Positions 8,192 through 50,295 of a stretch of DNA of 64,000 nt are shown here, piece after piece. The position numbers and the translations under genes were made by a program. The stretch comes from a virus. The notes beneath the pieces were generated by a model. The model had not been told where the DNA came from. It made no database searches and saw only the letters and a list, made by a program, of their open reading frames with translations. Position 1 is the stretch's first letter. Each line of letters opens with the position of its first letter. The stretch lies in the IMG/VR virus record IMGVR_UViG_3300045988_149625. The stretch is one strand, 5' to 3'.

Positions 8192-8202
8192 GAGAGGATT
8201 AA

Positions 8203-9386: not shown

Positions 9387-9395
9387 GGTGAGATA

Positions 9396-10001: not shown

Positions 10002-10002
10002 T

Positions 10003-12484: not shown

Positions 12485-14419
12485 ATGGCAAGCTTTCATA
12501 ACTGGACAGGTGATGAATTAATTGATACACAAGTCCCACAGTTTTTAAATGAAGATAATGCAGCAACACAGGAGAAATTAGACACTAAATTTAATAAATC
12601 CTTAGATATAGCAGAAGCCTCAGACTTAAACAATTTTAAGGATGAGGGGTTCTACTGCTGTAATTCTAATTCTCGTGCTGAAACTATTTTAAATTGTCCT
12701 ACTAATTATGCTTTCGGTTTAATGGTATGGGGTAAAGGCGAAATAGTCTATCAAGAAGTGCGCGAATTTAACAGAGGCTCTAACCAAGATTACAATAACT
12801 GTTGGAGAAGAAGTTATTCTGGGGGCGGACAAGGTGTGTGGTCTAACTGGCAGAAAGTGGCTTATGCAGCTACTACTTTAGCAGAATACGGAATAACAGA
12901 CGGTATGGGCAAGAACGCCACAAACAGTGTGGGTGTGACAGATATTATTAAAAGAAGTATTAATACGTCGTACTTGCGTTTAACAGGTGGCAATACATTT
13001 GATAAAAGTGCAACTCTTCAACTCTGCGGAGGTACTTATGCAACAAACGCAGGACAGTTTTTATTAAAAGCAGCAGATTCAGCACACTCAGCAACTCTTT
13101 CAGGTAATCCTTCTGGGCTACTTAAATGGAATGATAAAAATATAGTACGTTCAGTAAATAATTCTGTTGCAGATGAACATGGTAATGTAACTTTACTGTT
13201 CCCCGACTCAGATGTAACGCAGGAAGGCGCGGGGTACTGGAAGCCTAATGAATCAGTACAAGAAGGGGATATACGTTATGTGTATGGTAGAGGAAACACA
13301 GGTGTTGTTTTAAAATGTGTGAAAGCAGGAATAACAGGAGCAGAATTACCAGATTTAGAGGCTGCTTCAAATGCTGTGCAATTAGTAACAGAAACTACTA
13401 CTGAGGTAAAACCTTTTGATATATTGGATTATGTATCACAAGTACCAGAATATTACACACGCCCTAGTTTGTATACAGTTTCAAAAAAATCTATAACTAT
13501 ACCTAAGGGGTTACGTGTAAGAATTGGTGATAAAGGTTATGAGAGTGTTAGTACAACTACATTAAGCACTACATCTTTGGGAAGTTTGGCAGCAAAAGAT
13601 GTTTATATATATGCTTGTGCTCCTATTACTTTATCTACTGAGCCAATATTTGTACTTTCATTAAATAGTACAGTACCTAGTGGGTATACCGCAGAAAACA
13701 GTCGCAAGATTGGCGGTTTTCATTGCTTATGTGCAGATGTTGGTACAATAAGTGGACATACTTTAAGTGGTTATGTAGCAGGTGACATACTTCCTGCTTC
13801 TGCATGGGATTTAATTCATCGTCCACGATGTTCCCCCGAAGCAATGGTGTATTGTGATACGGTGGACTTTTGGGTCGATATATATTTGGATAGTTGGGAT
13901 GGTAACAAATTAGTATCTGTATACAAAGGTGTTACAGCAGACGGAACTTCCACTAAAAAGTTTCATGGTGAGCTTTTTGTAGATGAGCTTGCAAAATTGA
14001 ATAAAAGACTACCTCCAAGAAGAGTATTTCAAGCAATAATGAAAGGCTCAAATGAACGCACCAATGTTAAAGGTTCGAAAGACGTAAATACTACTGGTGG
14101 TAATGTAGATACAGCAGGTCGAAGAATGATAAGTAATTATGGTTGTGAAGATGGCTGCGGTTTCTTGTGGCAATGGTCTGATGAACTAGGTTTTGCAGGT
14201 GGTAGTGCATGGACAGATTCAGTATATAATTCAAGTGTCGATTCTGAAAGAATTGGACAAACTTATGGAACTTTGTATAGAGCTGCGCTGGGCGGTTGCT
14301 GGGTTCACGGCGGTTCTTGTGGTTCGCGGTCGGTGTTTTGCAGCCATTCCTCGGCTCTTGTCAGTGCTTATTTTGGCGGTCGCGGCGCTTGCGAGCCGAA
14401 GGTCGCAAAGTTCTATTAG
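12485..14419 (+). CDS. DGR target protein: tail fibre / receptor-binding protein with C-terminal variable region
   Basis: 644 aa. The last ~40 codons (nt 14276-14394) are the VR copy of the downstream TR. The C-terminus GGCWVHGG...YFGGRGAC is typical of DGR C-type-lectin-fold variable proteins. Confidence 0.85.
   Translation: MASFHNWTGDELIDTQVPQFLNEDNAATQEKLDTKFNKSLDIAEASDLNNFKDEGFYCCNSNSRAETILNCPTNYAFGLMVWGKGEIVYQEVREFNRGSNQDYNNCWRRSYSGGGQGVWSNWQKVAYAATTLAEYGITDGMGKNATNSVGVTDIIKRSINTSYLRLTGGNTFDKSATLQLCGGTYATNAGQFLLKAADSAHSATLSGNPSGLLKWNDKNIVRSVNNSVADEHGNVTLLFPDSDVTQEGAGYWKPNESVQEGDIRYVYGRGNTGVVLKCVKAGITGAELPDLEAASNAVQLVTETTTEVKPFDILDYVSQVPEYYTRPSLYTVSKKSITIPKGLRVRIGDKGYESVSTTTLSTTSLGSLAAKDVYIYACAPITLSTEPIFVLSLNSTVPSGYTAENSRKIGGFHCLCADVGTISGHTLSGYVAGDILPASAWDLIHRPRCSPEAMVYCDTVDFWVDIYLDSWDGNKLVSVYKGVTADGTSTKKFHGELFVDELAKLNKRLPPRRVFQAIMKGSNERTNVKGSKDVNTTGGNVDTAGRRMISNYGCEDGCGFLWQWSDELGFAGGSAWTDSVYNSSVDSERIGQTYGTLYRAALGGCWVHGGSCGSRSVFCSHSSALVSAYFGGRGACEPKVAKFY
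14276..14394 (+). repeat. DGR variable region (VR)
   Basis: 119 bp, collinear with TR at 14492-14610. All 23 mismatches in the aligned 116 bp fall at TR adenines. The 3' 26 bp (ggcggtcgcggcgcttgcga...) are identical to TR and GC-rich, like an IMH element. Confidence 0.9.
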
Positions 14420-14423
14420 AACT
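14409..14423 (+). promoter_or_regulatory. Hairpin immediately downstream of VR (agttcta t tagaact)
   Basis: Perfect 7-bp inverted repeat 14 nt after the end of VR homology, spanning the target stop codon. It is analogous to the DGR target-recognition hairpin. Confidence 0.4.
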
Positions 14424-14491
14424 AGGTATACGGCTACATGAAGTTGTTAAGGAACACGAAGTAGTCTTGAATATACTGGGTTGTGGTTGTT

Positions 14492-14610
14492 AAAAGAGCT
14501 AAACTAGGCGGTAACTGGGATAACAGCAGTTCTTGTAGTTCGCAGTCAGTGAATTGCAACAATTCCTCAGCTAATGTCAATGCTAATTATGGCGGTCGCG
14601 GCGCTTGCGA
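14492..14610 (+). repeat. DGR template region (TR)
   Basis: Adenine-rich (AAC/AAT codons) invariant copy of VR, located between the target gene and the RT. The ORF-track call 14483..14695 across this region is an artefact of TR copying coding sequence. Confidence 0.9.
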
Positions 14611-14865
14611 TACGGAGAGAGCTATTCCTTCGGCTGAACCACAATCCATTCTAGCAGAGAAATACTGTATAGAAAAACACACAACAGGAGTATAGAAGGG
14701 CTAGTAGTGTAAACGAACGTCATTCTATAAAACTCCGTATCTTTAAATAAAGGAGAAATAAACTTGAAAAGAATTGGGAATTTATGAACTAAAATTATAG
14801 ATAAAGAAAATATTAAGGAGAGTATTTTAAGCGCTGCAAAACATAAGAAAAAGCGCCCTGCGGTA

Positions 14866-16158
14866 ATGAAGGTACTCAATAATATAGACGAATATGTAGA
14901 AAAGATTCACAAATTGTTAGTAAACAAGGAGTATAAAGTTTCGGAATATTATATAAAAGCAATTTATGAGCCTAAGCTAAGGCTTATTTACATATTACCC
15001 TTTTATCCAGATAATATAATATTTCACTGCATAATGAGGGTATTAGAGCCTATATGGGACAGTAGGTTTATTTATGATACTTATTCATGCAGGAAGGGTA
15101 AGGGGCAACATAAAGGAATGTTAAAGAGCACTATATACGTAAAGAATTACAAATACTGCTTAAAATGTGATATAAGTCAGTTTTACCCAAGCCTTAATCA
15201 TAGAATACTAAAGGAAAGTTTCCGTTGGAAAATCAAAGATAAGGACGTATTGGAGCTACTTGACTTAATAGTAGATAGTGTTTCTGTGCGGGAAAGGAAT
15301 CTAGATTTTTTAAAGTGCTGCAAGGCAAGTGATAAACATATGATGGAACAGAAGCTTCAAACATTAAAAGAAGAGTTCCCAGAAGGAGATTTCGGTGTGC
15401 CTATTGGTAATTATCCTTCACAATGGTTCGGAAACCTTTATATGAACCCTTTAGATAACCTTATTAAGTACTGTTTCCATGCAAAAGCATATGTAAGATA
15501 CTGCGACGATTTTGTTGTTTACAGTAATGATAAAAAGTGGTTACATAGTGTAGCTGCGGAGATAGAGAACTTTTGTAAGGAAAGATTAAAATTAAAGATG
15601 AGTAAGTGTCGGGTATTTCCTACGAAGTGTGGAGTAGATTTCTTAGGGTATAAAGCATTTCCCAGTGGTAAGATTCTTTTGCGTAAAAGGACAGCAAAAA
15701 GAGTCCATAAACAAATAAAAGCATTATGGAAAGAGCTATCTTATGGGAACTATGAACAAATGCTTTCTAAAGTGGGAAGCAGAATGGGGTATTTAAGGTA
15801 CGCTAAAAGTTATAATTTTAGATTACAAATAAAGATTAAAGAGTTGGAAAGGGAACTAAAAAGGAGGATTAGTATGGTAGGTTATCCAAAAAATTTAAGC
15901 ACAAAAGAAGATTATGAGTACGTGAGAACACATTTCCCTAAAAGTGATTGGCAGAAAGACTTTGAAAGTCTTTTACCTCGCAAGGAATGGTTCTTCATTG
16001 AAGAAACTAAGGTTAATAAAAAAGAAGATGCTACTCATAAAACAGAACCCTCTGACGATGAAGGGGTATTCTATCGTTATGAATTGAGGGGGGTAAGTAA
16101 GGCAGCAGAAATTGGATATACGGTAGAAGAAGTAGAGAAGATTCTAAGGAGTGAATAA
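14866..16158 (+). CDS. DGR reverse transcriptase
   Basis: YCDDFVVY is the YxDD motif. IGNYPSQWFGN is the DGR-specific GxxxSQ motif. The N-terminal RT-like sequence (..ENIKESILSAAKHKKKRPAV) continues in frame upstream to 14788 without an ATG. Confidence 0.9.
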   Translation: MKVLNNIDEYVEKIHKLLVNKEYKVSEYYIKAIYEPKLRLIYILPFYPDNIIFHCIMRVLEPIWDSRFIYDTYSCRKGKGQHKGMLKSTIYVKNYKYCLKCDISQFYPSLNHRILKESFRWKIKDKDVLELLDLIVDSVSVRERNLDFLKCCKASDKHMMEQKLQTLKEEFPEGDFGVPIGNYPSQWFGNLYMNPLDNLIKYCFHAKAYVRYCDDFVVYSNDKKWLHSVAAEIENFCKERLKLKMSKCRVFPTKCGVDFLGYKAFPSGKILLRKRTAKRVHKQIKALWKELSYGNYEQMLSKVGSRMGYLRYAKSYNFRLQIKIKELERELKRRISMVGYPKNLSTKEDYEYVRTHFPKSDWQKDFESLLPRKEWFFIEETKVNKKEDATHKTEPSDDEGVFYRYELRGVSKAAEIGYTVEEVEKILRSE

Positions 16159-29208: not shown

Positions 29209-29514
29209 ATGAGAGTAAACGGTGAAATATTTGCAAGGCATATCGCAAGGGTTAATAATGTTTCTATCAAAGAAGGTTGGCGTATCTATAAAGCTTTTAT
29301 GACAGCTTTTTCAGAAACAGTGTCTGAGGGCTGCGACACTTTTGACTTTATAAACTATTTTAGAATCGAGTTTAAAGCTTATAAGGCTAAGGGAATGGAT
29401 TTAGTTCGCCAAGAAACTGTTGAAAGGCAGATTGTGCGTGGAAAGGTAAAGCCATATTCTAAATTACGTAAGCGCATTTTGGAGGCACAAAATGTATCAC
29501 CAAAAGTATTTTAA
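29209..29514 (+). CDS. HU/IHF-like (DNABII family) DNA-binding protein
   Basis: FRIEFKAYKAKGMDLVRQETVERQIVRGKVKPYSKLRKRI matches the HU arm pattern (GFGxFxV..R..RNPxTGE..I..KxPxFKxGK). Confidence 0.4.
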   Translation: MRVNGEIFARHIARVNNVSIKEGWRIYKAFMTAFSETVSEGCDTFDFINYFRIEFKAYKAKGMDLVRQETVERQIVRGKVKPYSKLRKRILEAQNVSPKVF

Positions 29515-31252
29515 ATTACATATTGTTCAAGAAGATACCTTAAATGACTTTTTAAATCTTTTTAAAAAAGCAAAGCAAGTCTTTTGGGACACTGAAACAT
29601 CTGGGTTAAATGTACGTGCTGTAGGTAAAGATTATACAGTAGGCTTTACGTATGCTTTTGATGATACTACATCTAAAGACGTTTTTTACGTTCCTGTAAG
29701 ACATGTGTTCGAGGGAAAATATGAGGATAATGGCAGATTCTCTTTCTTGAAGAAATCACAGCTTGAAAAGTTTCCAGATTTTTGCCCAGAAAAATTTGAA
29801 GGAACTTATTATAATGTAGATTCTTTTAAGTTTGCAGCAGAGCTTAAAACTATTATGGAGCGTGGCGGTAAAGAGTATATCGCACATAATCAAGATTATG
29901 ATTTACATTTACTAGCTAATGAAGGAATTGATATTTATAAAGTCTTTGACGTAAACACTTTTCAAGATACACAAATAATGGTGCATACACTAGATGAGAA
30001 TGTAGAAAAGAATCTTGAAAGTGTTACTAAGATGATTTTTAAAGTTGAAAAGTCGCATTATAGTGATACCATTAAAACTGTTACTAAAGAAGAAAAGCTT
30101 TCACAGGGTTTAAAGGCTACTAATAATGCAAGCTTTCAGCATGTTCAAATTCCAATAGGTGCACAGTATTCAGCAGAGGACGTTTGGTTTATGAAGCAAA
30201 TGTATCCAATGCTTGAAAAAGGTTTAAAAGAAGATGATTCTTATGACATATATCTTAAATGCCGTATGCCTTTTATGAAAGCCCTTTGGAAAATGGAAAG
30301 AAAAGGTGTAAGTGTAGATATTGCTGCCCTGGATAAGATGCAGGAACTTGCGGAGAAAGAATTAGAAAACTCTAAATATAAAATGTTTTCTTTGGCAGGA
30401 GTGGAGTTCAATCCCGATAGTGGACAACATCTTTATGAAATCCTTTTTGGCTTTAAAAAGAAAGTTATGAGGCTTACTCCAAGCGCACAAAATGCTTTTG
30501 AAATGGAAAGTGCTGGATACACTACGACTGAAAAAACTAAGCTTAAAAACTTGTATATGAATGAGCCGTCACATGTAATGTTCGTAGAATCTTGCAATAA
30601 TAATTTAGTAGATGTAAACTTTGGCTTTAAACCAATAGAGTTTACAACAGGCGGTAAGTATGGCTATGAAGAGTTACAAACGCCGAAAACAGGTGGAGAT
30701 ATTTTAAAAGCATTGTTAAAGCAGAAAAATGTTGATGCAAAAGCGCATGATTTTATTACAGAGCTTGTAACTTATAAAAAACTCTCTAAACTTATTAGTG
30801 CATTTATGATAGGGTTAAGAGAGAATATTTATAGTGATGGCAAAGTGCATTGTAGCTTGAATTTAACAGGAACAGATTCGTGGCGAATTAGTAGTCAGAT
30901 GCCGAATCTCCAGCAGCTACCGCACCCACTAGAAGAGCCGAAAGCGGGGGAAGATAGAACCTACTTTGATTTTTGGGAACGGTTTGAAATAAGAAAACTG
31001 TTTATAGCCGATGAAGGTTATAGTGTAATAGCTTGCGACTATCATGCTTTGGAGAAATACTTAACGGCGCATTTGTCACAAGATAAGATGCTTTTAAAGA
31101 TGTTGAGGGAGAATTTAGACCCGCACGGTACAGTTGCAACTATCGTTTTTCCAGAACTTGCAAACATGAATCCAAATGACGTAAAGAAGCGTGAGCCTGC
31201 TAAAAGGCAAATTGCAAAAAAAATAGGCTTCGCTAAAGGTATGGTGAAGTAA
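29492..31252 (+). CDS. polA: DNA polymerase I (family A), exon 1 (3'-5' exonuclease plus polymerase motifs A and B)
   Basis: Exo I motif FWDTETSGL. Motif A CDYHALEKYLTAHLSQD. Motif B RQIAKKIGFA is truncated by an in-frame stop at 31250. Exon sequence probably ends near 31234. Confidence 0.8.
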   Translation: MYHQKYFKLHIVQEDTLNDFLNLFKKAKQVFWDTETSGLNVRAVGKDYTVGFTYAFDDTTSKDVFYVPVRHVFEGKYEDNGRFSFLKKSQLEKFPDFCPEKFEGTYYNVDSFKFAAELKTIMERGGKEYIAHNQDYDLHLLANEGIDIYKVFDVNTFQDTQIMVHTLDENVEKNLESVTKMIFKVEKSHYSDTIKTVTKEEKLSQGLKATNNASFQHVQIPIGAQYSAEDVWFMKQMYPMLEKGLKEDDSYDIYLKCRMPFMKALWKMERKGVSVDIAALDKMQELAEKELENSKYKMFSLAGVEFNPDSGQHLYEILFGFKKKVMRLTPSAQNAFEMESAGYTTTEKTKLKNLYMNEPSHVMFVESCNNNLVDVNFGFKPIEFTTGGKYGYEELQTPKTGGDILKALLKQKNVDAKAHDFITELVTYKKLSKLISAFMIGLRENIYSDGKVHCSLNLTGTDSWRISSQMPNLQQLPHPLEEPKAGEDRTYFDFWERFEIRKLFIADEGYSVIACDYHALEKYLTAHLSQDKMLLKMLRENLDPHGTVATIVFPELANMNPNDVKKREPAKRQIAKKIGFAKGMVK

Positions 31253-31648
31253 AATTCCTCTCATAACGGTGAAAGCCATTAAGATTGCCATAACTTAATG
31301 GTCAACGCCGTGCCGAACTTCTTTGTAAAAAGACGGTGTAACGACTTATAATGTATCGCTATACTTTAAGTATAAATCTTACGAATACATTTAATGGGGA
31401 ACATGAACTATGTAAGAAGTGCCATCAAAAAGAGCATCATGCAGTTACCTATTTACTTTGTGATTGCGATGGCAATGTATTACATACGTTGATTAGTAAA
31501 AAGAGTGTGTTAAAGTTTTTAAATAGCCTTGGTTACTTTCCTAAAGATACAAGTGGTATTAGAGGGGTTATTAGAAATAAAACTAAAATATATGGTTTTT
31601 ACTGGCAGCGAGTTCTAAAGGCATAGTCTGACACCAGTAGTAATACTG
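31235..31648 (+). mobile_element. Intervening sequence in polA (group-I-intron-like) carrying an HNH homing endonuclease
   Basis: Motif B and the following QKYIDRYF helix are separated by ~415 bp containing stop codons and a free-standing ORF. P7-like R/S elements (gtaacgact ... atagtct) are present. Boundaries are approximate. Confidence 0.6.
31351..31626 (+). CDS. HNH homing endonuclease with AP2-like DNA-binding domain (intron-encoded)
   Basis: CKKCHQKEHH is an HNH-type Cys/His motif. GIRGVIRNKTKIYGFYWQ is AP2-like. Confidence 0.55.
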   Translation: MYRYTLSINLTNTFNGEHELCKKCHQKEHHAVTYLLCDCDGNVLHTLISKKSVLKFLNSLGYFPKDTSGIRGVIRNKTKIYGFYWQRVLKA

Positions 31649-32173
31649 GACAACGGACTGGTAGATTATGGCGGCACTTCTGTTGCGGTAAGTAAGAATT
31701 TGGATGTAGACCAAAAGACAGCACAGAAATACATTGACCGTTATTTTGAAGGTTTCTATGGTTTGCATACTTATGATAAAGCTGTAATACGTTTTGCACA
31801 GTCAAATGGGTTTGTAAAGACGCTTGGTGGACATAAAAGGCATTTATGGGATATTAACAGCAGTGATAAGAAAGTATCTTCTTACTTAGAGCGTGTTGCA
31901 GTAAATGTAATGAGCCAGGGTGCAGGTGGGGACGTAGCAATGTTTGCTACATTAGATGTTGACCGCGACCCAGTGCTTAAAGCAATAGGTGCATACTTAT
32001 TTTTAAATGTACACGATGAGTTAGGCTTAATGTGTCCAACTAAATACGTGGAGCTTGGAATGGAGCGTTTACAATATCATATGGAACATTGTTTACAGAA
32101 CCGTGGAATTAATCTGACAATTCCTTTGGAGGCAGTCCCAGATTATGGGCATAGCTATTATGATGCAAAATAA
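31649..32173 (+). CDS. polA: DNA polymerase I (family A), exon 2 (motif C)
   Basis: The frame is open from 31619. LVDYGGTSVAVSKNLDVDQKTAQKYIDRYF aligns to the post-motif-B segment of Pol I, and VHDELGL is motif C. The ORF track begins at a TTG at 31700, but the true exon start is upstream and approximate. Confidence 0.7.
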   Translation, partial: DNGLVDYGGTSVAVSKNLDVDQKTAQKYIDRYFEGFYGLHTYDKAVIRFAQSNGFVKTLGGHKRHLWDINSSDKKVSSYLERVAVNVMSQGAGGDVAMFATLDVDRDPVLKAIGAYLFLNVHDELGLMCPTKYVELGMERLQYHMEHCLQNRGINLTIPLEAVPDYGHSYYDAK

Positions 32174-38429: not shown

Positions 38430-38777
38430 TTGTTAATTACCAATATTAAAATTTATGGACTAGAAGAATCCATTTATGCAAGTGGGTATCCAATGCTTTC
38501 AAAACCACCTACTAAAGAAGAGTTTGAGAGTGGGGTATCTGATGTAACAACGAATATTTTTATGCGTGAAACTGTAGGAGCAAAAGCAGCAGGTGCACAT
38601 ATTAAAAGGGCTTTAAAGCTTGGCAGTGCAGCCGCAGGAACTGGGCACAATAACTTTTTAAAGGGAATTATTGTGCAAATGGATGTTAATGCACCGCAGT
38701 ATTGGTGGCAACAGGCACAGCGTTATCACTGGTTCGATTTCGTTAGCTCGAAGGGCGTTTTAGTAGGTAACTATTAA
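38430..38777 (+). CDS. thyX: ThyX-like flavin-dependent thymidylate synthase, exon 1
   Basis: VQMDVNAPQYWWQQAQRYHW aligns to ThyX FHVKAPIFVARQWFRHR. The ORF then runs into a stop at 38775. The exon probably ends ~38760. Confidence 0.5.
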   Translation: MLITNIKIYGLEESIYASGYPMLSKPPTKEEFESGVSDVTTNIFMRETVGAKAAGAHIKRALKLGSAAAGTGHNNFLKGIIVQMDVNAPQYWWQQAQRYHWFDFVSSKGVLVGNY

Positions 38778-39110
38778 AATTATGAATTGGTGAACCTAGA
38801 AATCTAGGGTGTGCGACTTATGTCGTGCTAACGGTAAGAGTTAAATAAGACTGGGAATATGACAATTATTCTCTTTAGCCATAGGCGAATACGCTCTCTA
38901 AGAGAAGCTAAGGACTTTCGTAAGTTAGCTTGCTAATACCGTGCTAAGTTTTTCTATTCTCATGTAATTTGAGAATAGATTAAAAAGTGTAACGACTAAC
39001 CGAAGTATTAACATACTTCAAGAGGTTTAAGGTGAAATTCCTTATTCCGTAGCGCCAATTACCCTATAAGGGTAAAGAGATAGTCTAATCCCACTATTAA
39101 ATTAGTGTTA
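38761..39110 (+). mobile_element. ORF-less group-I-like intron in thyX
   Basis: ~350 bp non-coding insert between two halves of one ThyX homologue. It contains R-like (acgactaacc) and S-like (gatagtcta) P7 elements. Boundaries are approximate. Confidence 0.5.
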
Positions 39111-39449
39111 AAGTACGCCGAAAGGCGGGGTAGAAATGCAATGAGTAAGGTACATTGCCTTACAAAAATGGATATTGACAGTATGTGTGACAGCACTGTA
39201 ACGGAAACAGCGAAGCTCAATTTAGTTGGGGCAATTCAAGATTACACTGAGGGCAAGATTGACTTTGACACTATGATGTGTAATGTTCCTATGGGATTGC
39301 ATTTAACTGCAAGAATGACAACAAATTATTTGCAGCTTAAAACGATGTATGCACAAAGACAGCATCACAAATCTAAAGAGTGGCAGGAGTTCTGTAAGTG
39401 GGTAACATATTTACCTATGAGCTATTTAATTACAGGAGGTACTATGTAA
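39105..39449 (+). CDS. thyX: ThyX-like thymidylate synthase, exon 2
   Basis: VPMGLHLTARMTTNYLQLKTMYAQRQHHKSKEWQEF aligns to ThyX [36 protein letters not shown]. The frame is open from 39084. Confidence 0.5.
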   Translation: MLKYAERRGRNAMSKVHCLTKMDIDSMCDSTVTETAKLNLVGAIQDYTEGKIDFDTMMCNVPMGLHLTARMTTNYLQLKTMYAQRQHHKSKEWQEFCKWVTYLPMSYLITGGTM

Positions 39450-40466: not shown

Positions 40467-41063
40467 ATGACTAATATTATATGTATGAGTGGCGGTTATG
40501 ACAGTACCGTACTTTATGATTATCTGAAAAAAGATGAACATTTAGATTTAAAGGTTTACCATGCGCTTTATACTAAAGTTGAAGGTGGCACATATAATTT
40601 AAATGAGTTTAAACGTCTTTCACAAAAGTTTAATAATGAAATAGATTATTTAGCGCACTTTAACTTACATTTATTAGGTGAGGATTACATTCCGAACAGA
40701 AACACTCTATTTGTAATGGATATCATTGCAAAGCTTTATGTTGGAGAGCCTTTAAATATTTACCTGGGAATTATTAAGAATTTTCCTAGATACCCAGACT
40801 GTACACATGAATGGTTGGAGGCTCTTAATTCATTTTTAAGCATTGAATTTCCAAATGTTAAAGTTTTAGCACCCTTTATAGACCTTACAAAAGACGATGT
40901 TTTCAAGATTGGATGCAAGCTTGGCGTAAAATTAGAGGATACTTTTTCATGTAACTTTTCTGATAATGGTGAGCCTTGCGGTGTTTGTGAGAATTGTAAA
41001 TGGCGCGCAGCGCATATGTACCCTAGTTATTTTTTGAAGGAGGGGAATGAAATTGGCAAATAA
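40467..41063 (+). CDS. queC: 7-cyano-7-deazaguanine synthase QueC
   Basis: PP-loop SGGYDST, NRNT, YPDC, and the C-terminal zinc motif CGVCENCKWR. Confidence 0.75.
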   Translation: MTNIICMSGGYDSTVLYDYLKKDEHLDLKVYHALYTKVEGGTYNLNEFKRLSQKFNNEIDYLAHFNLHLLGEDYIPNRNTLFVMDIIAKLYVGEPLNIYLGIIKNFPRYPDCTHEWLEALNSFLSIEFPNVKVLAPFIDLTKDDVFKIGCKLGVKLEDTFSCNFSDNGEPCGVCENCKWRAAHMYPSYFLKEGNEIGK

Positions 41064-41271
41064 ATCTAATTCGGAGAAGAAAAATTCTGTTCCGCAGATT
41101 AAAATTGCAGCAAGAAGTGTTGAAAAGACTAAAGGTGGATTTTTAAGTATTAAGCAGGGAAGAACAGGCGACACAAATAACTTACAGACTAATCCATATT
41201 ATAGATTTATGAATAGAACTTCTTGGAAAACTAAGAATAAAAAAGGCATTACACCTTGGGGGCGTATTTAA
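41047..41271 (+). CDS. Small basic protein
   Basis: 74-aa Lys/Arg-rich ORF. Confidence 0.25.
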   Translation: MKLANKSNSEKKNSVPQIKIAARSVEKTKGGFLSIKQGRTGDTNNLQTNPYYRFMNRTSWKTKNKKGITPWGRI

Positions 41272-43166
41272 AAATGAAAGGTGATTTTACGCTTTTATTA
41301 TCTGGTGTTGAGCCTAAGGAAAACTGGGAAGTAGCATCTTCTGTAACAAAGAATGTGCTACTTTCCTATAAGTATATTCGTAAACGTGGATTAGATGAAA
41401 TTGTAAAGCGTTTAAAGTCCCATAGGGGAATGAAAGTTTTAATTGATAGTGGTGCTTATACATTCTTTAATGATAAAGAGTTTAATAATAAGACTATTGA
41501 ATGGTGGGAAGATTATTTAGTAAAGTATATTAACTTTATACGTGAGTACCGTGACTATATCTTTGCCTGCGTGGAACTAGATATTGATAGTATTGTTGGC
41601 GAGGATATTGTAGAAGGTTGGCGTGAAAAGTATTTCTACCCATTAGAAAGAGAAGGAATAAATGTTATTTATCTTTATCATTTAGATAAAGATTTATCGC
41701 ATTTTGAAAAGCTTTGTAAGCAGCATCCTTATGTTGGATTTTCGTACATGGAGATAAAGCATACTATTGAGGATATGGGGGAAAGAGAAAATCTCATTTC
41801 ACAACTATTCCAAATAGCTAAAAGGTATAAATCTGCTATTCATGGTTTTGCAATTACAGGTAATAAGCTACTATTGAGTTATCCATTCTTTTCCGCAGAT
41901 TCTACTACGTATTTAACAGGTGCGCAATTTGGTACAATTACCTACTTTGAAGCAGGTCAAATGAAGCATCTTGAAAAAACACAGTGGAAAACAGAATATA
42001 TGGAAAAACTAAAGGCGTTGGGGTTAAAGGAGAAATTGCTTGAAATAGAATCTCCTTATGAGCTTATAAGAGCAAATGCCATTAGCTATAAGAAATTTGA
42101 AGAATACGTTAAAAATGTTATGCGGCCACAAAAATATTGGGAAGCACGTTCAAACACTAAATACTCTATTCCAGATGCATCATGGTTTGAAGGGGATATG
42201 CAAGATTGGCAGGAACGCTTAGAACTAGCAGGAATTGATACAAACATTCCTCAAACAGCGGGTGAAACAATTTTACATGATGCTTATATTTTTCTAAATG
42301 AGCCTAAAGAAGCCAAGAATTATGAACTTGACGACCTTGTGGGTTTATGTGCAATGTTTGGTGCAACAGGTGCAAACTATAATACAAAAGATAAGTGTAT
42401 AAAGTTTTTGCAGGAAGCTTTCAAAGAACATGTTGACGGTATGCGAAACGAGTTGTCAAATTTGCAGAATCCAGAAGAGGGGCAGCGTATAGCACTTGAA
42501 CGTGAGGACTATATTACAGAGAAAGAGTATTTAGAGGTTGAAATGAGTAGGGAAGAATGTGGAGAACTTCTACCTGCATTATTAACTTCTGGATATGATA
42601 AAGATGATGTTGAAAAATCTTTAATAGAACAAGGTATTAAACCAATCTATGATAAAAATGGTAATATCTTAAAAGGTATCAAAAAGGTTAAGCGACAGAA
42701 AAAGCTTTCCACAAGGGCTTTGCCTAGACTTTCTTGTGATAGATGCGTAATGGCAGCAAACTGTACAGAGTACCAAGCAGGATATATTTGTGCATACGAT
42801 AAAATGTTCCGCAGATTTAACACCAGGGAACAAGAAGATGTTATACAGGGAATGACAGCTATTGCTGATTTAGCAATAGAACGTGCTCAAAAAGCCTTTA
42901 TGCTTGAAACAGCTATGGGTGGGACACCTACAAAGGCTACTTCACAGGCAATGCAGGATGCTTTTGGATATTTAACTAAGTTAAAAGAATTGCAAGATGA
43001 AGTAAAAGGACGACCAGTTATGGTTTCACAAACAAAAATCAAGGGCGGCAGTATCGAACAAACTGTTGTTCATGGTGCTAATCCTCAATCTGGCGGCATT
43101 TTAGAGCGAATTTTTATGGAAGATACAGACGATGAAAAAACAGTAGAAGCGGAGGTAGTTAAATGA
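41256..43166 (+). CDS. dpdA: DpdA / tRNA-guanine-transglycosylase-like protein (7-deazaguanine DNA insertion enzyme candidate)
   Basis: TGT-fold signature VLLSYKY...VLIDSGAYTF (compare TGT DSGGFQ). The C-terminus has a Cys cluster (CDRCVMAANC...C). It is co-located with QueC and QueE-like genes. Confidence 0.5.
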   Translation: MGAYLKMKGDFTLLLSGVEPKENWEVASSVTKNVLLSYKYIRKRGLDEIVKRLKSHRGMKVLIDSGAYTFFNDKEFNNKTIEWWEDYLVKYINFIREYRDYIFACVELDIDSIVGEDIVEGWREKYFYPLEREGINVIYLYHLDKDLSHFEKLCKQHPYVGFSYMEIKHTIEDMGERENLISQLFQIAKRYKSAIHGFAITGNKLLLSYPFFSADSTTYLTGAQFGTITYFEAGQMKHLEKTQWKTEYMEKLKALGLKEKLLEIESPYELIRANAISYKKFEEYVKNVMRPQKYWEARSNTKYSIPDASWFEGDMQDWQERLELAGIDTNIPQTAGETILHDAYIFLNEPKEAKNYELDDLVGLCAMFGATGANYNTKDKCIKFLQEAFKEHVDGMRNELSNLQNPEEGQRIALEREDYITEKEYLEVEMSREECGELLPALLTSGYDKDDVEKSLIEQGIKPIYDKNGNILKGIKKVKRQKKLSTRALPRLSCDRCVMAANCTEYQAGYICAYDKMFRRFNTREQEDVIQGMTAIADLAIERAQKAFMLETAMGGTPTKATSQAMQDAFGYLTKLKELQDEVKGRPVMVSQTKIKGGSIEQTVVHGANPQSGGILERIFMEDTDDEKTVEAEVVK

Positions 43167-45322
43167 GAAAATTAGCAAGTGTAGAAATTATAGATAAATT
43201 AGAGCCTATCCCAAATGCTGATAGAATTTTAAAAGCAACTGTAAAAGGTTGGGAATGTGTTGTAAGTAAGAGTGACAACTTTCAGCAAGGCGATAAAGTA
43301 GTGTATATTGAAGTAGATTCTGTTCTCCCTGCAAGACCAGAATTTGCCTTCCTTAAAGACAGAAAGTACCGCATTAAGACTATTAAGTTGCGTAAACAGA
43401 TTTCACAAGGTTTGATTCTGCCTTTAAGTTACTTGCCAAACAAAGAATACGCTGTTGGGGAAGATGTAACTAAAATATTGAATATTAAGAAATTTGACCC
43501 GCAGCTTGAAGCAGAGAATAAAATCATGGCAGTTGCTGCCCCAAAAGGAAGATTCACATTCTTATGGAAGCCTTTAATGCGTTTCCGTTGGTTTAGACGC
43601 TTATATGCAAAATTCCATGTACAGAATGAAAAGTTCCCTACTTACATTGCAAGCAAGACTGATGAAGAACGCTGGCAGAATATTACTGACAAGCTTGAAC
43701 AATGGAGAGATACAAATGTCCCCCTGATTTGTACAGAGAAGGTCGACGGCTGCCATTCATACAGAAGTAGTGTAATTACAAATAAGGGGTTCTTGCCAAT
43801 AGGTAAAATTGTAAATGAAAAACTTGATGTGGAAGTTCTTACTTATAATGAAGAATCCAAATGTTGTGAGTTTAAACCTATTATAGATTATCATAAAATC
43901 TTATGTACAAAGCCTACATACCGCATTGGTGTAGGAAGTCGTGGTAAGGGAAATAAGCCTAAATATATTGAGTGTACCTCTAACCATGAATTTTTAACAC
44001 AAGACGGCTGGAAGCAAGCGGATGAGCTTACTTTAGATGATACTCTAATGCACTATTTTTCTGTTATTAACTATGATATTCAAAGTATTATCTTAGGCTG
44101 CTTACTAGGGGATAGCAGCATTAATGGCAATAGAAAAGGTACATCTTACTTAACTGTACTGTTTGGGCACTCTGAAAAACAAGTAGAATATTTTAATTAT
44201 AAGAAGCAGCTTTTTGGAAATCTTTTTATTGAACAAAAGGATACTTTAAGTGGATATGGCAGTGTAATTAAACATGGTATTTTACGTTCCAATGAGGGTG
44301 TTCGTAGACTTATTGAGGAGTATTGTTTGGTAGATGATAAATTTGCGGTAACACAAAAATATTGCGATGCTTTAACACCTATGTCATTGGCATTTTGGTA
44401 TATGGACGACGGAAGCCTTTTAACAGGTACTTTACGACCAAAAGCAATTTTAAATACGCAAGCATATGATTTAAATACTATCAAAATGCTTGTAGAAACC
44501 TTACGTAACCGCTTTGGTTTAGAGGCATTTATTGGAGATAAAGAAGTTTATAAAGGATACGTTATTTATTTCTCTGTGGAATCTACCCTTAAATTTGCAC
44601 AATTAATTGCCCCCTATGTATGCGAAAGTATGAGATATAAATTACCAGAACAGTATAGAAGTTATGGATGTGCTTTAAATAGTGTAAATACAGAAGTGCA
44701 AGATATTTTACCCACAAAAATTCTCTCCATTGAAGAGTTTGAAGCAGGTCATTTTGGCAAGCATATGTATGATTTAACTATTCAAGATAATCATAATTAT
44801 TTTGTACATAGTATTTTAACTCATAATTGTTCCTCAACCTTCTTTTTAGACGGCGGCACTTTTGGGGTTTGCAGTAGAAATATTTGGCTACGTAAGGAAG
44901 ATAATTCGCCCTATTGGGAAATTGCAAGACGCTTTCAGATTGAGGAAGCTTTAAAGGAGATTCAAAAGTGCTTTGGTTTTAGAAAAATTGTTTTACAAGG
45001 TGAGATTATTGGGCAAAATATCCAAGCTAATAAATATAAGATTAGCGGGTATGATTTTTATGCCTATAATTTAATCCTTGACGGCATTAAAGTTTCACAA
45101 GTAAAAATGGAAGAGCTTCTTAAAGAATTTCGCATTAAAACAGTGCCTGTAGTTTATAAGCATATCAATGTGCCAAGTGACTTACAGACCTTAAACAATC
45201 TTGCGAGTGGTAAAAGTGTATTACTTGATACACAAGAGCGTGAAGGTATCGTTTGCAGAAATTATGAGCAGGGGATTTCTTTTAAAGCGATTTCCCCAAC
45301 TTTCTTGCTAAAAGAAGAATAA
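43163..45322 (+). CDS. ATP-dependent RNA/DNA-ligase-family nucleotidyltransferase containing an intein
   Basis: KxDG motif TEKVDG is directly followed by an intein. The extein resumes CSSTFFLDGG. Confidence 0.55.
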   Translation: MRKLASVEIIDKLEPIPNADRILKATVKGWECVVSKSDNFQQGDKVVYIEVDSVLPARPEFAFLKDRKYRIKTIKLRKQISQGLILPLSYLPNKEYAVGEDVTKILNIKKFDPQLEAENKIMAVAAPKGRFTFLWKPLMRFRWFRRLYAKFHVQNEKFPTYIASKTDEERWQNITDKLEQWRDTNVPLICTEKVDGCHSYRSSVITNKGFLPIGKIVNEKLDVEVLTYNEESKCCEFKPIIDYHKILCTKPTYRIGVGSRGKGNKPKYIECTSNHEFLTQDGWKQADELTLDDTLMHYFSVINYDIQSIILGCLLGDSSINGNRKGTSYLTVLFGHSEKQVEYFNYKKQLFGNLFIEQKDTLSGYGSVIKHGILRSNEGVRRLIEEYCLVDDKFAVTQKYCDALTPMSLAFWYMDDGSLLTGTLRPKAILNTQAYDLNTIKMLVETLRNRFGLEAFIGDKEVYKGYVIYFSVESTLKFAQLIAPYVCESMRYKLPEQYRSYGCALNSVNTEVQDILPTKILSIEEFEAGHFGKHMYDLTIQDNHNYFVHSILTHNCSSTFFLDGGTFGVCSRNIWLRKEDNSPYWEIARRFQIEEALKEIQKCFGFRKIVLQGEIIGQNIQANKYKISGYDFYAYNLILDGIKVSQVKMEELLKEFRIKTVPVVYKHINVPSDLQTLNNLASGKSVLLDTQEREGIVCRNYEQGISFKAISPTFLLKEE
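43751..44827 (+). mobile_element. Intein (359 aa) with LAGLIDADG homing endonuclease
   Basis: N-terminal Cys (CHSYRSSVITNKGFLPIGKIV, block A). LAGLIDADG blocks ILGCLLGDSS and LAFWYMDDGS. C-terminal FVHSILTHN followed by C+1. Confidence 0.75.
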
Positions 45323-45756: not shown

Positions 45757-46182
45757 ATGAAGCAACCAATTATGCGTTTTAAAGATGAGAAAGATTTGCA
45801 GCAAGCTACTCGGAAATGGCAAGGAATTTTGCAGCTAAATGATTGGCTGATTAAAACAAACCTTGTAGATGATGCTATTAAAGATGGTAACGATACTTGT
45901 GACGGCATTAATAATGTTACTCATTCAACTAAAACAGCCATAATTACAATCTCGCATTGTAATGATGTAGACTTTGTTTTTAAACATTGTGAAGAACTTG
46001 TTTTAATTCACGAGTTACTTCACTGTACTATTATGGCTGTGGGGAACACGCAGAGAAGTATTGAAGCCTGTGTCTATGAAGAGGTAATGCACCAGCCTAT
46101 TGATACTATTGCACGTGCATTACTTATGACAGAGTACAATTTAACATTTGAGTGGTTTATGGAGGATGAAATTAAGGAATAA
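45757..46182 (+). CDS. Small HExxH protein (putative zinc metallopeptidase / ImmA-like)
   Basis: VLIHELLHCTI carries the HExxH motif. Confidence 0.3.
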   Translation: MKQPIMRFKDEKDLQQATRKWQGILQLNDWLIKTNLVDDAIKDGNDTCDGINNVTHSTKTAIITISHCNDVDFVFKHCEELVLIHELLHCTIMAVGNTQRSIEACVYEEVMHQPIDTIARALLMTEYNLTFEWFMEDEIKE

Positions 46183-46266
46183 GAGGTGTCTTATGTTAAT
46201 TCGTTCACCGCCGATTTAAAAACTCTTAAAGTCTACAAACTCCTTTAAAATAAAGGAGAATTTAAA

Positions 46267-46497
46267 TTGGTACTTATTATTACAGGAATTATTATCTTAT
46301 TTGCACCTATGGTTATTTTTACAAAGGGTTATTTTAAAATCCCTACTGATATGGCGCAAGTTTTTGATACTATGAAATCCGCTACTGGCGTAGACTTGAA
46401 AGCTATTGCAGACGCAAATACCATTGATGCAAAAGTTAATAAGAATGTTGCTATTAAAGGAGCAATTCCTGTTAAAAATGCAGCTAAAAAGTCTTAA
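46267..46497 (+). CDS. Small membrane-anchored protein
   Basis: 76 aa with an N-terminal TM segment. Confidence 0.3.
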   Translation: MVLIITGIIILFAPMVIFTKGYFKIPTDMAQVFDTMKSATGVDLKAIADANTIDAKVNKNVAIKGAIPVKNAAKKS

Positions 46498-48898: not shown

Positions 48899-49084
48899 AT
48901 GATTACTGTAAAAGTAACAACTACTAAACAACTATATTCCTTAATTAACTGTTTATTCGAGCTACATAGGAATGAGCTTGAAACGGAGGAAAAGAAGCAG
49001 CTAACGGCTGTGACACTACTCCCATACAATCAATCTATCTATATGCCTGTAGAGCTTTATTTGAAGATAAGGGGGATATTATGA
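48899..49084 (+). CDS. Hypothetical protein
   Basis: 61-aa ORF downstream of promoter TTGACA(48843)-TATACT. Confidence 0.25.
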   Translation: MITVKVTTTKQLYSLINCLFELHRNELETEEKKQLTAVTLLPYNQSIYMPVELYLKIRGIL

Positions 49085-49566
49085 TTTATCTTGTAGCCGA
49101 CACACACTTCAACCATGATATGATGATTGAGAGTGGTTTGCGCCCAAAAGAGTATGAACGAAAGCTTATTAGAAATTGGAATAAGCAGGTAAAAGATGAA
49201 GATATTGTCATTCTCTTAGGGGATATTTCTTGGCGAAATGATTATAGTGTTCTTGAAAAATTGCATGGAAGAAAGATTCTTGTAAGAGGTAATCATGATA
49301 AACATTCCTGCGAGGCTTTTATGAAAGTCTTTGACTTTGCGTGTGATTCGTTTACAATGGACTACAAGGGAATTAATATCATTTTTACGCATAAACCATT
49401 AAAGCGTTTTTCACAAGATGTAAATATTCATGGACATTTACATGATAAACCTGCTTTAAGAGATAAAAGACACATTCTTATTTCCCTGGAAAAAATGGGA
49501 TACTGTGTGTTCCCTTTAAAGGGAATTATTAAGAAGTGGAAAAAGCTTAATATGGAGGGATGCTAA
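49081..49566 (+). CDS. Calcineurin-like metallophosphoesterase
   Basis: VADTHFNHD, LGDISW, GNHDK. Confidence 0.6.
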   Translation: MIYLVADTHFNHDMMIESGLRPKEYERKLIRNWNKQVKDEDIVILLGDISWRNDYSVLEKLHGRKILVRGNHDKHSCEAFMKVFDFACDSFTMDYKGINIIFTHKPLKRFSQDVNIHGHLHDKPALRDKRHILISLEKMGYCVFPLKGIIKKWKKLNMEGC

Positions 49567-50295
49567 TTGATTTATATTACAGGTGATATTCACCAAAATT
49601 TTGATACTTGGAAGTTTGACGGAATTGATTTTAAATCAGAAGATTTCCTAATTATATGCGGAGATTTTGGTTGGGTATGGGCACATTCTTCTTTAAAGAA
49701 GCAAGTCTTAGATGAGAAGAAAAGACTACGTGCTTTTGTTCAAAAGCTGAAATGTACAGTGCTTTTCTGTGACGGAAACCACGAAAACTTTGCAAGATTG
49801 AATGATTATAAAGAATTTCCAGTTACAAAGCGTTGGGGTGGTAAGGTACAAAAACTATGTAATAAATGTTATCATTTAGTACGTGGTGAAAGCTTCCTCA
49901 TTGACGGCAAAAAATTCCTTGCTTTAGGTGGAGCGGAGTCACATGATAAATTTCTTAGAACGCCAAATTTATCATGGTGGGAACAAGAAACGATTGAGGA
50001 TGCAGAAGTTGAAAACGCTATAAAAAATTCTGACAATGTAGATTGTGTTATAACACATTGTTGTCCTACATCTATTCTTACAGATTTATATGCAGCAAGG
50101 TGTATTGACAGTGTGCAGCCTACACTTTCCACGGAACAATTAGAAAAGTTGTATAAACATTTATGTACTAAAAATCATAAATTTAAATGGTTCTTTGGAC
50201 ATTATCATTTTGATAGGAATTTTACAAAGGGAGCAGGAGATTTCTATTTACTGTATGATGCAATTTATTGTTTAGATACAGACAGCCATTTTTAA
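49567..50295 (+). CDS. Calcineurin-like metallophosphoesterase (second, tandem)
   Basis: TGDIHQN, CGDFGW, GNHENF. Confidence 0.6.
   Translation: MIYITGDIHQNFDTWKFDGIDFKSEDFLIICGDFGWVWAHSSLKKQVLDEKKRLRAFVQKLKCTVLFCDGNHENFARLNDYKEFPVTKRWGGKVQKLCNKCYHLVRGESFLIDGKKFLALGGAESHDKFLRTPNLSWWEQETIEDAEVENAIKNSDNVDCVITHCCPTSILTDLYAARCIDSVQPTLSTEQLEKLYKHLCTKNHKFKWFFGHYHFDRNFTKGAGDFYLLYDAIYCLDTDSHF

Follow-up and report, generated by a model that had tools for sequence, protein, structure and literature searches.

Inteins in phage RNA ligases have been described before. That of the cluster J mycobacteriophages is tabulated as a class 1 LAGLIDADG intein in an 'Rtcb-like RNA ligase IPR021122' in a 2025 preprint, which gives no insertion site for it and which also mentions conditional splicing of other inteins (bioRxiv 10.1101/2025.01.02.630785), and gp164 of Pseudaeromonas phage vB_PpeM_KLEP7 (OM654377, UNY40322.1) is labelled 'intein-containing RNA ligase' in GenBank. 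NgrRnl of Naegleria gruberi (PDB 5cot, 5cou and 6vt entries) and DraRnl of Deinococcus (TIGR02306) are nick-sealing RNA ligases of the Rnl5 type and carry no intein. I-SceI (PDB 1r7m) is a monomeric double-LAGLIDADG endonuclease, the free-standing ORF product of a yeast mitochondrial group I intron, and in the inteins PI-PfuI (1dq3), Mtu RecA and Ssp DnaB an endonuclease is nested between the two lobes of a Hint fold. Here, we describe a locus that brings these components together, in a window of 64,000 nt (the whole stretch of viral DNA that was analysed, IMG/VR record IMGVR_UViG_3300045988_149625). Our reading, to which we assign a probability of about 0.9, is that a class 1 intein with a working I-SceI-type LAGLIDADG endonuclease lies in frame after the K-x-D-G motif of an Rnl5-type ligase, with splicing and DNA cleavage predicted from conserved residues and fold.

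The precursor is encoded by a single ORF on the + strand (43163..45322, 719 aa plus stop), whose ATG overlaps the stop of the upstream gene (ATGA) and follows an SD-like GGAGGT located 8 nt upstream. The gene belongs to an uncultured phage with a dsDNA genome of about 100 kb. The frame is open and uninterrupted across both intein junctions, which read ...PLICTEKVDG/CHSYRSS... at the N-terminal side and ...HSILTHN/CSSTFFLDGG at the C-terminal side (a slash marks the junction). Four Pfam profiles match the precursor, all above gathering score: the PHA02142 OB fold (PF21189, aa 4-88, 1.7e-28), Intein_splicing (aa 214-555, 3.4e-12), LAGLIDADG_2 (aa 308-478, 1.2e-27) and RNA_ligase (PF09414, aa 556-709, 8.6e-18). 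A preliminary description of this DNA had proposed an intein profile scan as a check, and the second and third of these matches are its outcome. In an AlphaFold model of the precursor (mean pLDDT 81) the arrangement of the domains is not informative, because pTM is only 0.48 and junction residues 194-197 have a pLDDT below 50. At least one public source names this exact protein "tRNA-binding EMAP/Myf-like protein". The gene would be better annotated as an intein-containing RNA ligase; gene callers would also miss the mature enzyme length of 360 aa.

By architecture and fold, the host protein is an ATP-dependent RNA ligase of the DraRnl/NgrRnl type (Rnl5) in the covalent nucleotidyltransferase superfamily, an RNA-repair enzyme predicted to seal 3'-OH/5'-PO4 RNA nicks. 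The N-extein (43163..43750, + strand, aa 1-196) comprises an OB domain (aa 4-88), followed by a linker and the first part of the nucleotidyltransferase domain, and ends with motif I, E-K193-V-D-G196 (43736-43750, + strand), in which Lys193 is aligned with NgrRnl Lys170. The C-extein (44828..45322, + strand, aa 556-719 plus stop) begins with the +1 residue Cys556 (44828-44830), matches PF09414, and supplies ligase motifs Ia (SRN, aa 571-573), III (QGE614), IV (RE694G) and V (FK708), in alignment with the E227, E312 and K326 regions of NgrRnl. Residues K193, D195 and G196, as well as R572, N573, E614, E694, G695 and K708, are invariant in the 56 homologues compared, and the ligase catalytic residues are conserved in all intein-bearing alleles compared, which indirectly supports splicing. 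When aa 197-555 are removed, the spliced extein of 360 aa (junction EKVDG-CSSTFF) matches NgrRnl with an alignment that is unbroken through the junction (phmmer against PDB 5cot, E 3e-43), and Foldseek matches the ligase part to NgrRnl with a TM of 0.80-0.83 on target. The domain order is an N-terminal OB domain (PF21189) followed by the nucleotidyltransferase (PF09414), without a C-terminal OB domain. The TIGR02306 score rises from 135.1 bits for the precursor to 145.5 bits for the spliced extein, narrowly missing the equivalog cut-off of 151.15 bits, and the protein is therefore filed as Rnl5-type by architecture and fold, and not as a DRB0094 equivalog. Both earlier proposals about the host, an RNA-ligase-like nucleotidyltransferase and an insertion immediately after KxDG, are borne out, the former now refined to the Rnl5 type by its N-terminal OB fold.

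The inserted element (43751..44827, + strand; aa 197-555, 359 aa, 1077 nt) directly follows motif I (K193-V-D-G196) and precedes Cys556, and by its sequence blocks and modelled fold it is a class 1 intein (Cys1 ... His-Asn) with a Hint domain, for which protein splicing is predicted. The N-terminal Hint lobe (43751..44045, + strand) holds block A with Cys197 (43751-43753) and block B, T272-S-N-H275 (43976-43987), and the C-terminal lobe (44676..44827, + strand) holds block F, YDLTIQDNHNYF (44768-44803), and block G, ILTHN (44813-44827). The cysteine at intein position 1 and the block B residues T76 and H79 (intein numbering; T272 and H275) are conserved in 100% of 75 inteins at insertion site b, D537 of block F and the terminal H554 and N555 are invariant among 56-75 homologues, and the +1 residue is Cys, Ser or Thr (46, 20 and 15, respectively) in 81 site-b junctions, with nothing else seen there. 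Overall, no residue expected to catalyze splicing, DNA cleavage or ligation varies among 56-75 homologues, whose identity to the window intein is 24-98%. The TIGR01443 intein_Cterm model is matched at 19.1 bits (cut-off 15.6), and Foldseek aligns the AlphaFold model with the Ssp and Npu DnaB, Npu DnaE and Mtu RecA inteins (TMt 0.57-0.77, rmsd 2-3 A). Thus the N-terminal Cys, block A, two LAGLIDADG blocks, terminal HN and +1 Cys of the preliminary description are all present where it had placed them.

Nested between the lobes is a homing endonuclease domain (44046..44675, + strand, aa 295-504), with limits taken from an in-frame 630-nt deletion in a mini-intein allele. It matches LAGLIDADG_2 (PF03161) at 97.3 bits (cut-off 25), with no match to Pfam LAGLIDADG_3 in the precursor, and carries two motifs, ILGCLLGDSS (aa 310-319, 44090-44119), with the acidic residue D317, and LAFWYMDDGS (aa 409-418, 44387-44416), with the acidic residue D416; D317 and D415-D416-G417 are invariant among the endonuclease homologues (56-75 compared). 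The best match of the domain, by both sequence (2.7e-15 against PDB) and fold (Foldseek, TM 0.76, rmsd 2.5-2.7 A), is I-SceI, including both acidic residues. In view of its motifs and fold, this is a monomeric two-motif LAGLIDADG endonuclease of the I-SceI kind, and it would be expected to cleave DNA and to drive homing.

We envisage the following cycle. Translation would yield the 719-aa precursor, which is probably inactive because 359 residues cut off the catalytic Lys193 from motifs Ia-V. Splicing would then take the canonical four-step route: it would begin with an N-S acyl shift at Cys197 and continue with trans-thioesterification to Cys556, after which Asn555, aided by His554, would cyclise and an S-N shift would follow. 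The products would be the 360-aa ligase, joined as EKVDG-CSSTFF, and the free intein. On co-infection with an intein-less relative, the endonuclease of the free intein would cut the empty motif I site, and the break would be mended with the intein-bearing allele as template, so that the element is copied in (homing).

The limits of the intein are given independently by alleles that lack it. DNA alignments with two intein-less alleles, L001 and L003, each contain one gap, which coincides exactly with 43751-44827 (1077 nt) of the window, i.e. with the 359-aa element delimited in the preliminary description from the protein alone, an agreement far beyond chance. The L001 allele encodes a natural intein-less homologue of 360 aa (P0121, ~99% identical), which differs at 4 residues from the predicted spliced product and has an identical junction. 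Most homologues, this one included, are without the insert, which rules out that it is a domain common to all of them, the finding that the preliminary description had named as fatal to its proposal. The phage contigs with intein-less alleles share 91-97% DNA identity with the window, with three empty-allele contigs (L013, L014 and L016) 91-96% identical over kilobases of flanks, and one of these (L016) coexists with an intein-bearing contig (L015) in the same IMG metagenome. In a further allele (L002, 98% identical) only 44046-44675 are deleted, in frame, leaving a mini-intein of 149 aa that keeps exactly both Hint lobes. With full, endonuclease-deleted and empty alleles in phages 91-98% identical, the stages of a homing cycle are represented here in nature with unusual completeness. 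The empty site of the L001 allele, ACAGAGAAGGTCGACGGC/TGTTCGAGTACCTTC, is a candidate target of the endonuclease, and synonymous differences among the empty alleles fall inside this presumed target.

Comparison of the window with two other intein-bearing lineages (L008 and L010) indicates that the intein has recently been transferred laterally and is under purifying selection. The intein DNA is 93-98% identical among the three (dS 0.07-0.29), whereas identity falls to 62-69% in their ligase exteins, where dS is saturated, and to about 66-69% in their flanking genes; recent mobility follows from this discordance, with the same intein having moved into ligase alleles more than 30% different in DNA. 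The dN/dS ratio is 0.05-0.16 for the endonuclease and 0.04-0.21 for the parts of the intein. There is no visible extended co-conversion tract beside the intein in L008 or L010, so whether transfer went by homing or by other recombination is a matter of inference. With more than 100 intein-bearing ligase homologues in metagenomes, the intein is not unusual for this ligase family.

These data bear directly on the alternative that survives best, although we consider it improbable, namely that the intein splices but its endonuclease is dead and the element is vertically inherited, heading for a mini-intein or for loss. Such decay would account for the mini-intein in a 98%-identical phage, and would agree with the sizes of the protein clusters: the empty form has the largest, with 234 members, the full intein has 89 and the mini-intein 8, the picture to be expected toward the end of a homing cycle. 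However, 75 inteins show no change at either catalytic aspartate or in the DDG, and neither the low endonuclease dN/dS nor the near-identity of the intein across lineages with saturated synonymous divergence in the extein fits a dead, vertically inherited element.

A still less likely alternative is that the intein has been recruited as a switch that acts after translation, splicing conditionally (e.g. under redox control through Cys197, Cys556 or Cys190) and keeping the ligase off until a given stage or stress. Conditional protein splicing is documented for other inteins, and here the insertion is at the catalytic motif of a precursor that is probably inactive, both junction nucleophiles are Cys, and another Cys is found at position -7. 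On the other hand, nothing in the data demands a switch, near-identical phages manage without the intein, 35 of the 81 site-b junctions have Ser or Thr at +1, and the distribution is that of a selfish element.

A reading of the insert as a group I intron (or some other intervening sequence acting at the RNA level) with an in-frame LAGLIDADG ORF, to be removed from the mRNA and not from the protein, is hardly tenable. The nearest relatives of the endonuclease, I-SceI and I-WcaI, are both intron-encoded, and the same window contains a group I intron candidate at 38807-39106. Against this, Rfam finds no intron in 43163-45322 and no group I ribozyme core (P3-P9) around this ORF (RF00028, at gathering score or with E up to 0.1), the frame stays open through both junctions, the endonuclease is framed by the conserved Hint blocks A, B, F and G in a recovered Hint fold, and the mini-intein retains exactly the Hint lobes. 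Equally implausible is a permanent accessory domain (Hint/BIL-type or a DNA-binding module) kept in the mature ligase: intein-like domains are known from bacteria, and an intein goes unmentioned in the protein's public annotation, but nothing specific favours this reading, the insert is missing with exact boundaries from 99%-identical and most other homologues, it has the terminal His-Asn and the +1 Cys (always Cys, Ser or Thr at the 81 site-b junctions), and it parts the motif I lysine from the remaining active site.

As to other selfish elements in the window, the preliminary description had listed a DGR and two introns in addition to the intein, which is borne out in part. ORFs for a DGR-type Mtd and RT are present, and there is one group I intron candidate, a sub-threshold match (38807-39106) that coincides with a presence/absence indel; a second intron was not found in the window.

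A homing intein in an Rnl5-type ligase, our preferred reading, also invites a wider comparison. Rnl5-type relatives have three occupied intein sites within 27 residues (KTDEER/C, K/CDG and KxDG/C); a mere 9 nt separate sites b and c, whose inteins are up to 52% identical, and some relatives in the family carry two inteins. Not only Rnl5-type ligases but also other PF09414 RNA ligases and ATP-dependent DNA ligases have related inteins at the homologous position, and the nearest non-ligase relatives of the window intein include RecA MFG/SPETT-site and helicase DE/C-site inteins. Tentatively, a single lineage of I-SceI-type inteins may have landed repeatedly in the DNA for motif I (K-x-D/H/N-G) of covalent nucleotidyltransferases, passing from one ligase family to another and changing register inside a family. 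If this were true, the window intein, which occurs naturally as full, mini and empty alleles, would lend itself to work on endonuclease re-targeting ("extein switching"). Also plausible as tools are the intein itself, which is compact, of class 1 and has a natural mini version of 149 aa, and its endonuclease, for which a candidate target is defined.

Set against the described systems, the cluster J intein (e.g. Bobby gp147, MK524516) is at the same motif I position, ITQKLHG/C...VHN/SSIRVG compared with EKVDG/C...THN/CSSTFF here, as we read its insertion site from sequence. Both are class 1 inteins with a LAGLIDADG_2-type endonuclease in hosts that match PF09414, and they are homologous (E 6e-19), but with only 27% identity; the cluster J element further differs in a K-L-H-G motif I, a +1 Ser, and an actinobacteriophage ligase with a weak N-terminal OB match (PF21189, E 0.0076). 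The intein of KLEP7 gp164 is full-length and homologous (E 5e-36, with 32% identity over 376 columns) and has the same Hint and LAGLIDADG_2 layout, but it is inserted in the motif III/IIIa region (ISGEWAG/C...VHN/SNIQK) of a ligase whose motif I is K-I-H-G and which lacks the PHA02142 OB match. The spliced extein shares its architecture with NgrRnl, including equivalents of Lys170, Glu227, Glu312 and Lys326, whereas NgrRnl has Ser where the phage protein has its +1 Cys. Unlike I-SceI, the window endonuclease is nested in a Hint domain, and its target must differ; the PI-PfuI, Mtu RecA and Ssp DnaB inteins share the Hint fold and blocks but differ in host protein and insertion site. The element is thus not new in kind: it is a textbook case of an intein, which leaves what is known about inteins unchanged.

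The open reading frame at window positions 43163-45322 (+ strand) encodes a precursor of 719 aa; its start codon is joined to the stop of the preceding gene in an ATGA overlap and is preceded by a GGAGGT 8 nt upstream. Both junction strings that a preliminary description had read in this protein were found in it, and they enclose a segment of 359 aa (aa 197-555, nt 43751-44827). A Pfam scan of the precursor returned four matches, each above its gathering score, comprising a PHA02142 OB fold (aa 4-88, 1.7e-28) and RNA_ligase PF09414 (aa 556-709, 8.6e-18), as well as Intein_splicing (aa 214-555, 3.4e-12) and LAGLIDADG_2 (aa 308-478, 1.2e-27). NCBIfam added TIGR02306 (RNA ligase, DRB0094 type) and an intein C-terminal model above its cut-off, and the HMM check proposed earlier thus recognized the segment as an intein. 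Searches of PDB sequences matched Naegleria gruberi RNA ligase (NgrRnl) to both flanks of the insert, and I-SceI and DnaB mini-inteins to its interior. GC content was uninformative, the difference between intein (32.3%) and exteins (35.6-37.6%) being slight. An identical 719-aa protein is already deposited in NCBI, IMG, ENA and Logan, and one public source labels it a 'tRNA-binding EMAP/Myf-like protein', with neither intein nor ligase recognized there.

Excision of aa 197-555 leaves a protein of 360 aa that aligned to NgrRnl unbroken across the junction (query 157-358, E 3e-43), with the spliced K-V-D-G-C-S pairing with K170-L-D-G-S. With this spliced sequence as query we recovered 5059 homologues, headed by a natural protein of 360 aa (P0121) that is 99% identical and differs by four substitutions, none of them near the junction EKVDG↓CSSTFFL (arrows mark insertion points or splice junctions). 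At the DNA level, two related phage contigs, L001 and L003, each align with a single gap that corresponds exactly to window 43751-44827, their exteins being 95-97% and 74-79% identical to the window, respectively. The comparison with intein-less alleles suggested in the preliminary description therefore revealed a precise absence of the insert in P0121, L001 and L003, and the insert is not conserved in all homologues. The 99%-identical P0121 and the exact gaps in L001 and L003 led us to reject the reading of the insert as an accessory domain of the ligase or a BIL domain, and a group I intron at this position was rejected on an Rfam search of 43163-45322 that gave no match at E up to 0.1. Synteny with the window is also seen in longer contigs that carry empty alleles: L013 and L014 match ~10 kb of its upstream sequence at 91-92% identity, and L016 matches at ~96% over the shorter flanks that the two share. 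A single IMG metagenome, 3300045988, yielded both the empty L016 and an intein-bearing contig, L015, which is 97.8% identical to the window.

Conservation was assessed within the intein and across the whole precursor. Among 75 full-length inteins inserted at the same site (24-98% identical to that of the window), the invariant positions include Cys1, block B Thr76 and His79, block F Asp341 and the terminal His358-Asn359, along with Asp121 of the first LAGLIDADG motif and Asp219-Asp220-Gly221 of the second. A nucleophile stands at +1 in every one of the 81 junctions of this insertion site (46 Cys, 20 Ser, 15 Thr). Likewise invariant, across 56 aligned whole precursors, are the ligase residues Lys193, Asp195 and Gly196 (motif I), Arg572 and Asn573 (Ia), Glu614 (III), Glu694 and Gly695 (IV) and Lys708 (V), whose counterparts in the NgrRnl alignment described above are Lys170, Glu227, Glu312 and Lys326. 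Since the ligase keeps all of its catalytic residues although it is split at the active site, this pattern implies that the insert would be removed from the host enzyme. An AlphaFold model of the precursor (mean pLDDT 81.4, pTM 0.48) was compared with PDB structures: the extein halves together resemble NgrRnl (TM on target 0.80-0.83), the middle region resembles I-SceI (TM 0.76, rmsd 2.5-2.7 Å) and I-WcaI, and the lobes flanking it resemble the Ssp and Npu DnaB, Npu DnaE and Mtu RecA inteins; the relative placement of these modules cannot be read from the model because of the low pTM and the low confidence at residues 194-197. The original interpretation, an intein directly after KxDG of an RNA ligase, proved correct on HMM, boundary and conservation evidence. 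Judging from sequence comparison, we put the probability of a class 1 intein capable of splicing at roughly nine in ten, and we are somewhat less confident that its endonuclease is active today. A canonical mechanism of splicing and homing is well supported by comparison as the one this element would follow.

Full, mini and empty forms of the allele occur naturally, a series that would span the complete homing cycle. A related contig, L002, matches >10 kb of the window at 98% identity, and its ligase gene differs in structure solely by a deletion, in frame, of window 44046-44675 (630 nt, aa 295-504), the ends of which share 3 nt of microhomology. This deletion takes out the entire endonuclease domain and leaves a 149-aa mini-intein in a 509-aa product (P0004), with all retained intein residues identical to those of the window at the protein level. 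In protein clusters at 90% identity, 89 member sequences had a full intein, 8 a mini-intein and 234 an empty allele, numbers that count sequence variants and not phage abundance.

The intein is present in three related phage lineages, represented by the window, L008 (protein P0002) and L010 (protein P0003). Its nucleotide identity is 94% between the window and L008 (dS 0.275), 93% between the window and L010 (dS 0.293), and 98% between L008 and L010 (dS 0.072), whereas the N- and C-exteins of the same pairs are 62-69% identical, with dS from 1.4 to >2.6 or not computable because of saturation. The genes flanking the ligase in L008 are ~66-69% identical to those of the window, and the ends of the younger block of 1077 nt match the ends of the intein within a few nucleotides. 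Because this block appears far younger than its surroundings, it carries the signature of an intein that moved laterally between phage lineages, evidence of present or recent mobility. Values of dN/dS were 0.05-0.16 for the endonuclease part and 0-0.21 for the Hint lobes, and therefore point to purifying selection on both predicted activities since the transfers. A search for a co-conversion tract flanking the L008 and L010 inteins turned up nothing, and no target-site difference consistently separated intein-bearing from empty alleles. Four clustered synonymous changes distinguish the window (44833-44836, at +6 to +9 nt counted from the insertion point) from L001, its closest empty allele, with TCC TCA in the window and TCG AGT in L001 both encoding Ser-Ser; the L001 site is otherwise identical to the window for at least 30 nt on either side. 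These changes could represent target-site variation or co-conversion.

All 120 best matches to the precursor contain inteins. We sorted the window's protein and these 120 by junction motif, in preference to blastp HSP breaks, which were noisy, and hmmsearch domain tables, which recovered only some cases; hmmalign to an intein-less profile was set aside, as it aligned only one extein half. Insertion occurred as in the window (site b, KxDG↓C/S/T) alone in 77 proteins, at a site 26 residues upstream (site a, KTDEER↓C-E/Q-N) alone in 27, and directly after the catalytic lysine (site c, TEK↓CDG, in which the +1 Cys occupies the x position of KxDG) in 10, while four carried two inteins (a plus b, ~1110-1120 aa) and three were unclassified. 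Atypical junctions can escape this sorting (the upstream intein of P0005, and P0104, P0106 and P0113), and P0005, tallied among the 77, is a fifth two-intein protein by eye. In these double-intein ligases (P0007, P0015, P0018, P0055 and P0005), KTDEER↓C and KxDG↓C are 26 extein residues apart. Named relatives with site c, 9 nt upstream of the window's site b, are P0044, P0054, P0057, P0079, P0082, P0084, P0088, P0098 and P0110. Inteins cluster according to site, with a mean identity of 33% between a and b, and of 42% (maximum 52%) between b and c; the likeness of the latter pair may reflect a register shift of one element. In the intein-less Rnl5 homologues P0121-P0238, KxDG is followed by Gln in 64 of ~117 and by Cys, Ser or Thr in only about a quarter, and because Gln predominates, most family members would need a substitution to support splicing there; all empty alleles closest to the window have Cys at this position. 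This family is well suited for studying intein dynamics, given its naturally occurring full, mini and empty alleles, the sharply delimited signature of transfer, and the pattern of three sites and double inteins.

The window belongs to an uncultured phage of ~100 kb (contigs of 99-105 kb), and a megablast of the ligase gene against a phage collection gave zero matches, with no close cultured relative. Just upstream of the ligase are homologues of QueC (40467-41063) and of a DpdA-like queuine tRNA-ribosyltransferase (41256-43166; phrog_887, 1e-66; nearest match Bacillus phage BCD7, 33% identical), a gene content that suggests 7-deazaguanine DNA modification. For L002, gene calling gives two ORFs (8095-8850 and 8838-10004) in place of one DpdA-like gene. 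Two metallophosphoesterases are encoded downstream (49081-50295), and the physiological role of the ligase is perhaps RNA repair. L013 and L014 have extra genes at 11945-13816, including a Band_7/flotillin (481-516 aa), without counterpart at window 46182-46342.

Candidates for other intervening or mobile elements occur in this phage group. A group I intron candidate without an internal endonuclease ORF lies at window 38752-39140 (+ strand), where Rfam RF00028 matches 38807-39106 over the full model length (E 3.6e-7; 41.5 bits, short of the 50-bit gathering score); this 389-nt block is missing from the near-identical L002 and L013, which have an intact 210-aa gene, the window counterpart being split into ORFs 38430-38777 and 39105-39449. 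At 12485-16158 lie components of a diversity-generating retroelement: an ORF with an Mtd second domain (12485-14419, 7e-22) and, after it, a reverse transcriptase (14866-16158; RVT_1, 1.9e-14). The DNA polymerase A ORF (29492-31252) covers only positions 55-216 of 381 in the polymerase-domain profile and is followed by short ORFs (also 31351-32173), and another intervening element may split this gene. In the related phage L010, ThyX (4821-5924, 367 aa) has an Intein_splicing match between two Thy1 halves, and the PTPS/QueD-like gene (2253-3356), 367 aa versus 122-126 aa in L008 and L011, may hold another intein. Free-standing LAGLIDADG_3/LAGLIDADG_4 endonuclease genes lie near the metallophosphoesterase in L008 (16097-16657) and L009 (7312-7890), and the corresponding part of the window is without one.

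A scan of 1.84 billion cluster representatives with the intein alone yielded 4616 matches with E ≤1e-3, of which 1675 had E ≤1e-10. The 150 best of the 4616 included 124 newly found proteins with a readable insertion site: 32 have an Rnl5-type host, 39 carry the intein after another K-x-D/H/N-G, 13 at a GExxG site, and the remainder at helicase DE↓C, RecA MFG↓SPETT and other sites. A Pfam scan of ten such proteins revealed both RNA ligases (PF09414) and ATP-dependent DNA ligases (PF01068). The inteins of DNA ligases resemble the window's intein no more closely than those of helicases or RecA do, and common descent across ligase families is therefore no more than a possibility.

To a specialist, a phage intein at a nucleotide-binding motif is no surprise. 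Our literature search found no paper text on ATP-dependent RNA or DNA ligases with an intein at KxDG, and an RNA ligase intein tabulated solely in a 2025 preprint surveying actinobacteriophage inteins (bioRxiv 10.1101/2025.01.02.630785), which reports class 1 LAGLIDADG inteins in a cluster J phage RNA ligase (IPR021122) as new to that survey. In Pseudaeromonas phage KLEP7, gp164 is annotated in GenBank as "intein-containing RNA ligase"; its intein is 32% identical to that of the window, but is inserted at another site (GEWAG↓C...HN↓SNIQK) in another type of ligase. The RNA ligase gp147 of the cluster J phage Bobby, by contrast, has junctions (ITQKLHG↓CFPAK and VHN↓SSIRVG, read here from its sequence) at the same position after motif I as in the window, and an endonuclease of the same LAGLIDADG_2 type, in an intein 27% identical to the window's. 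The KxDG insertion site is thus one with a precedent, though an uncharacterized one.
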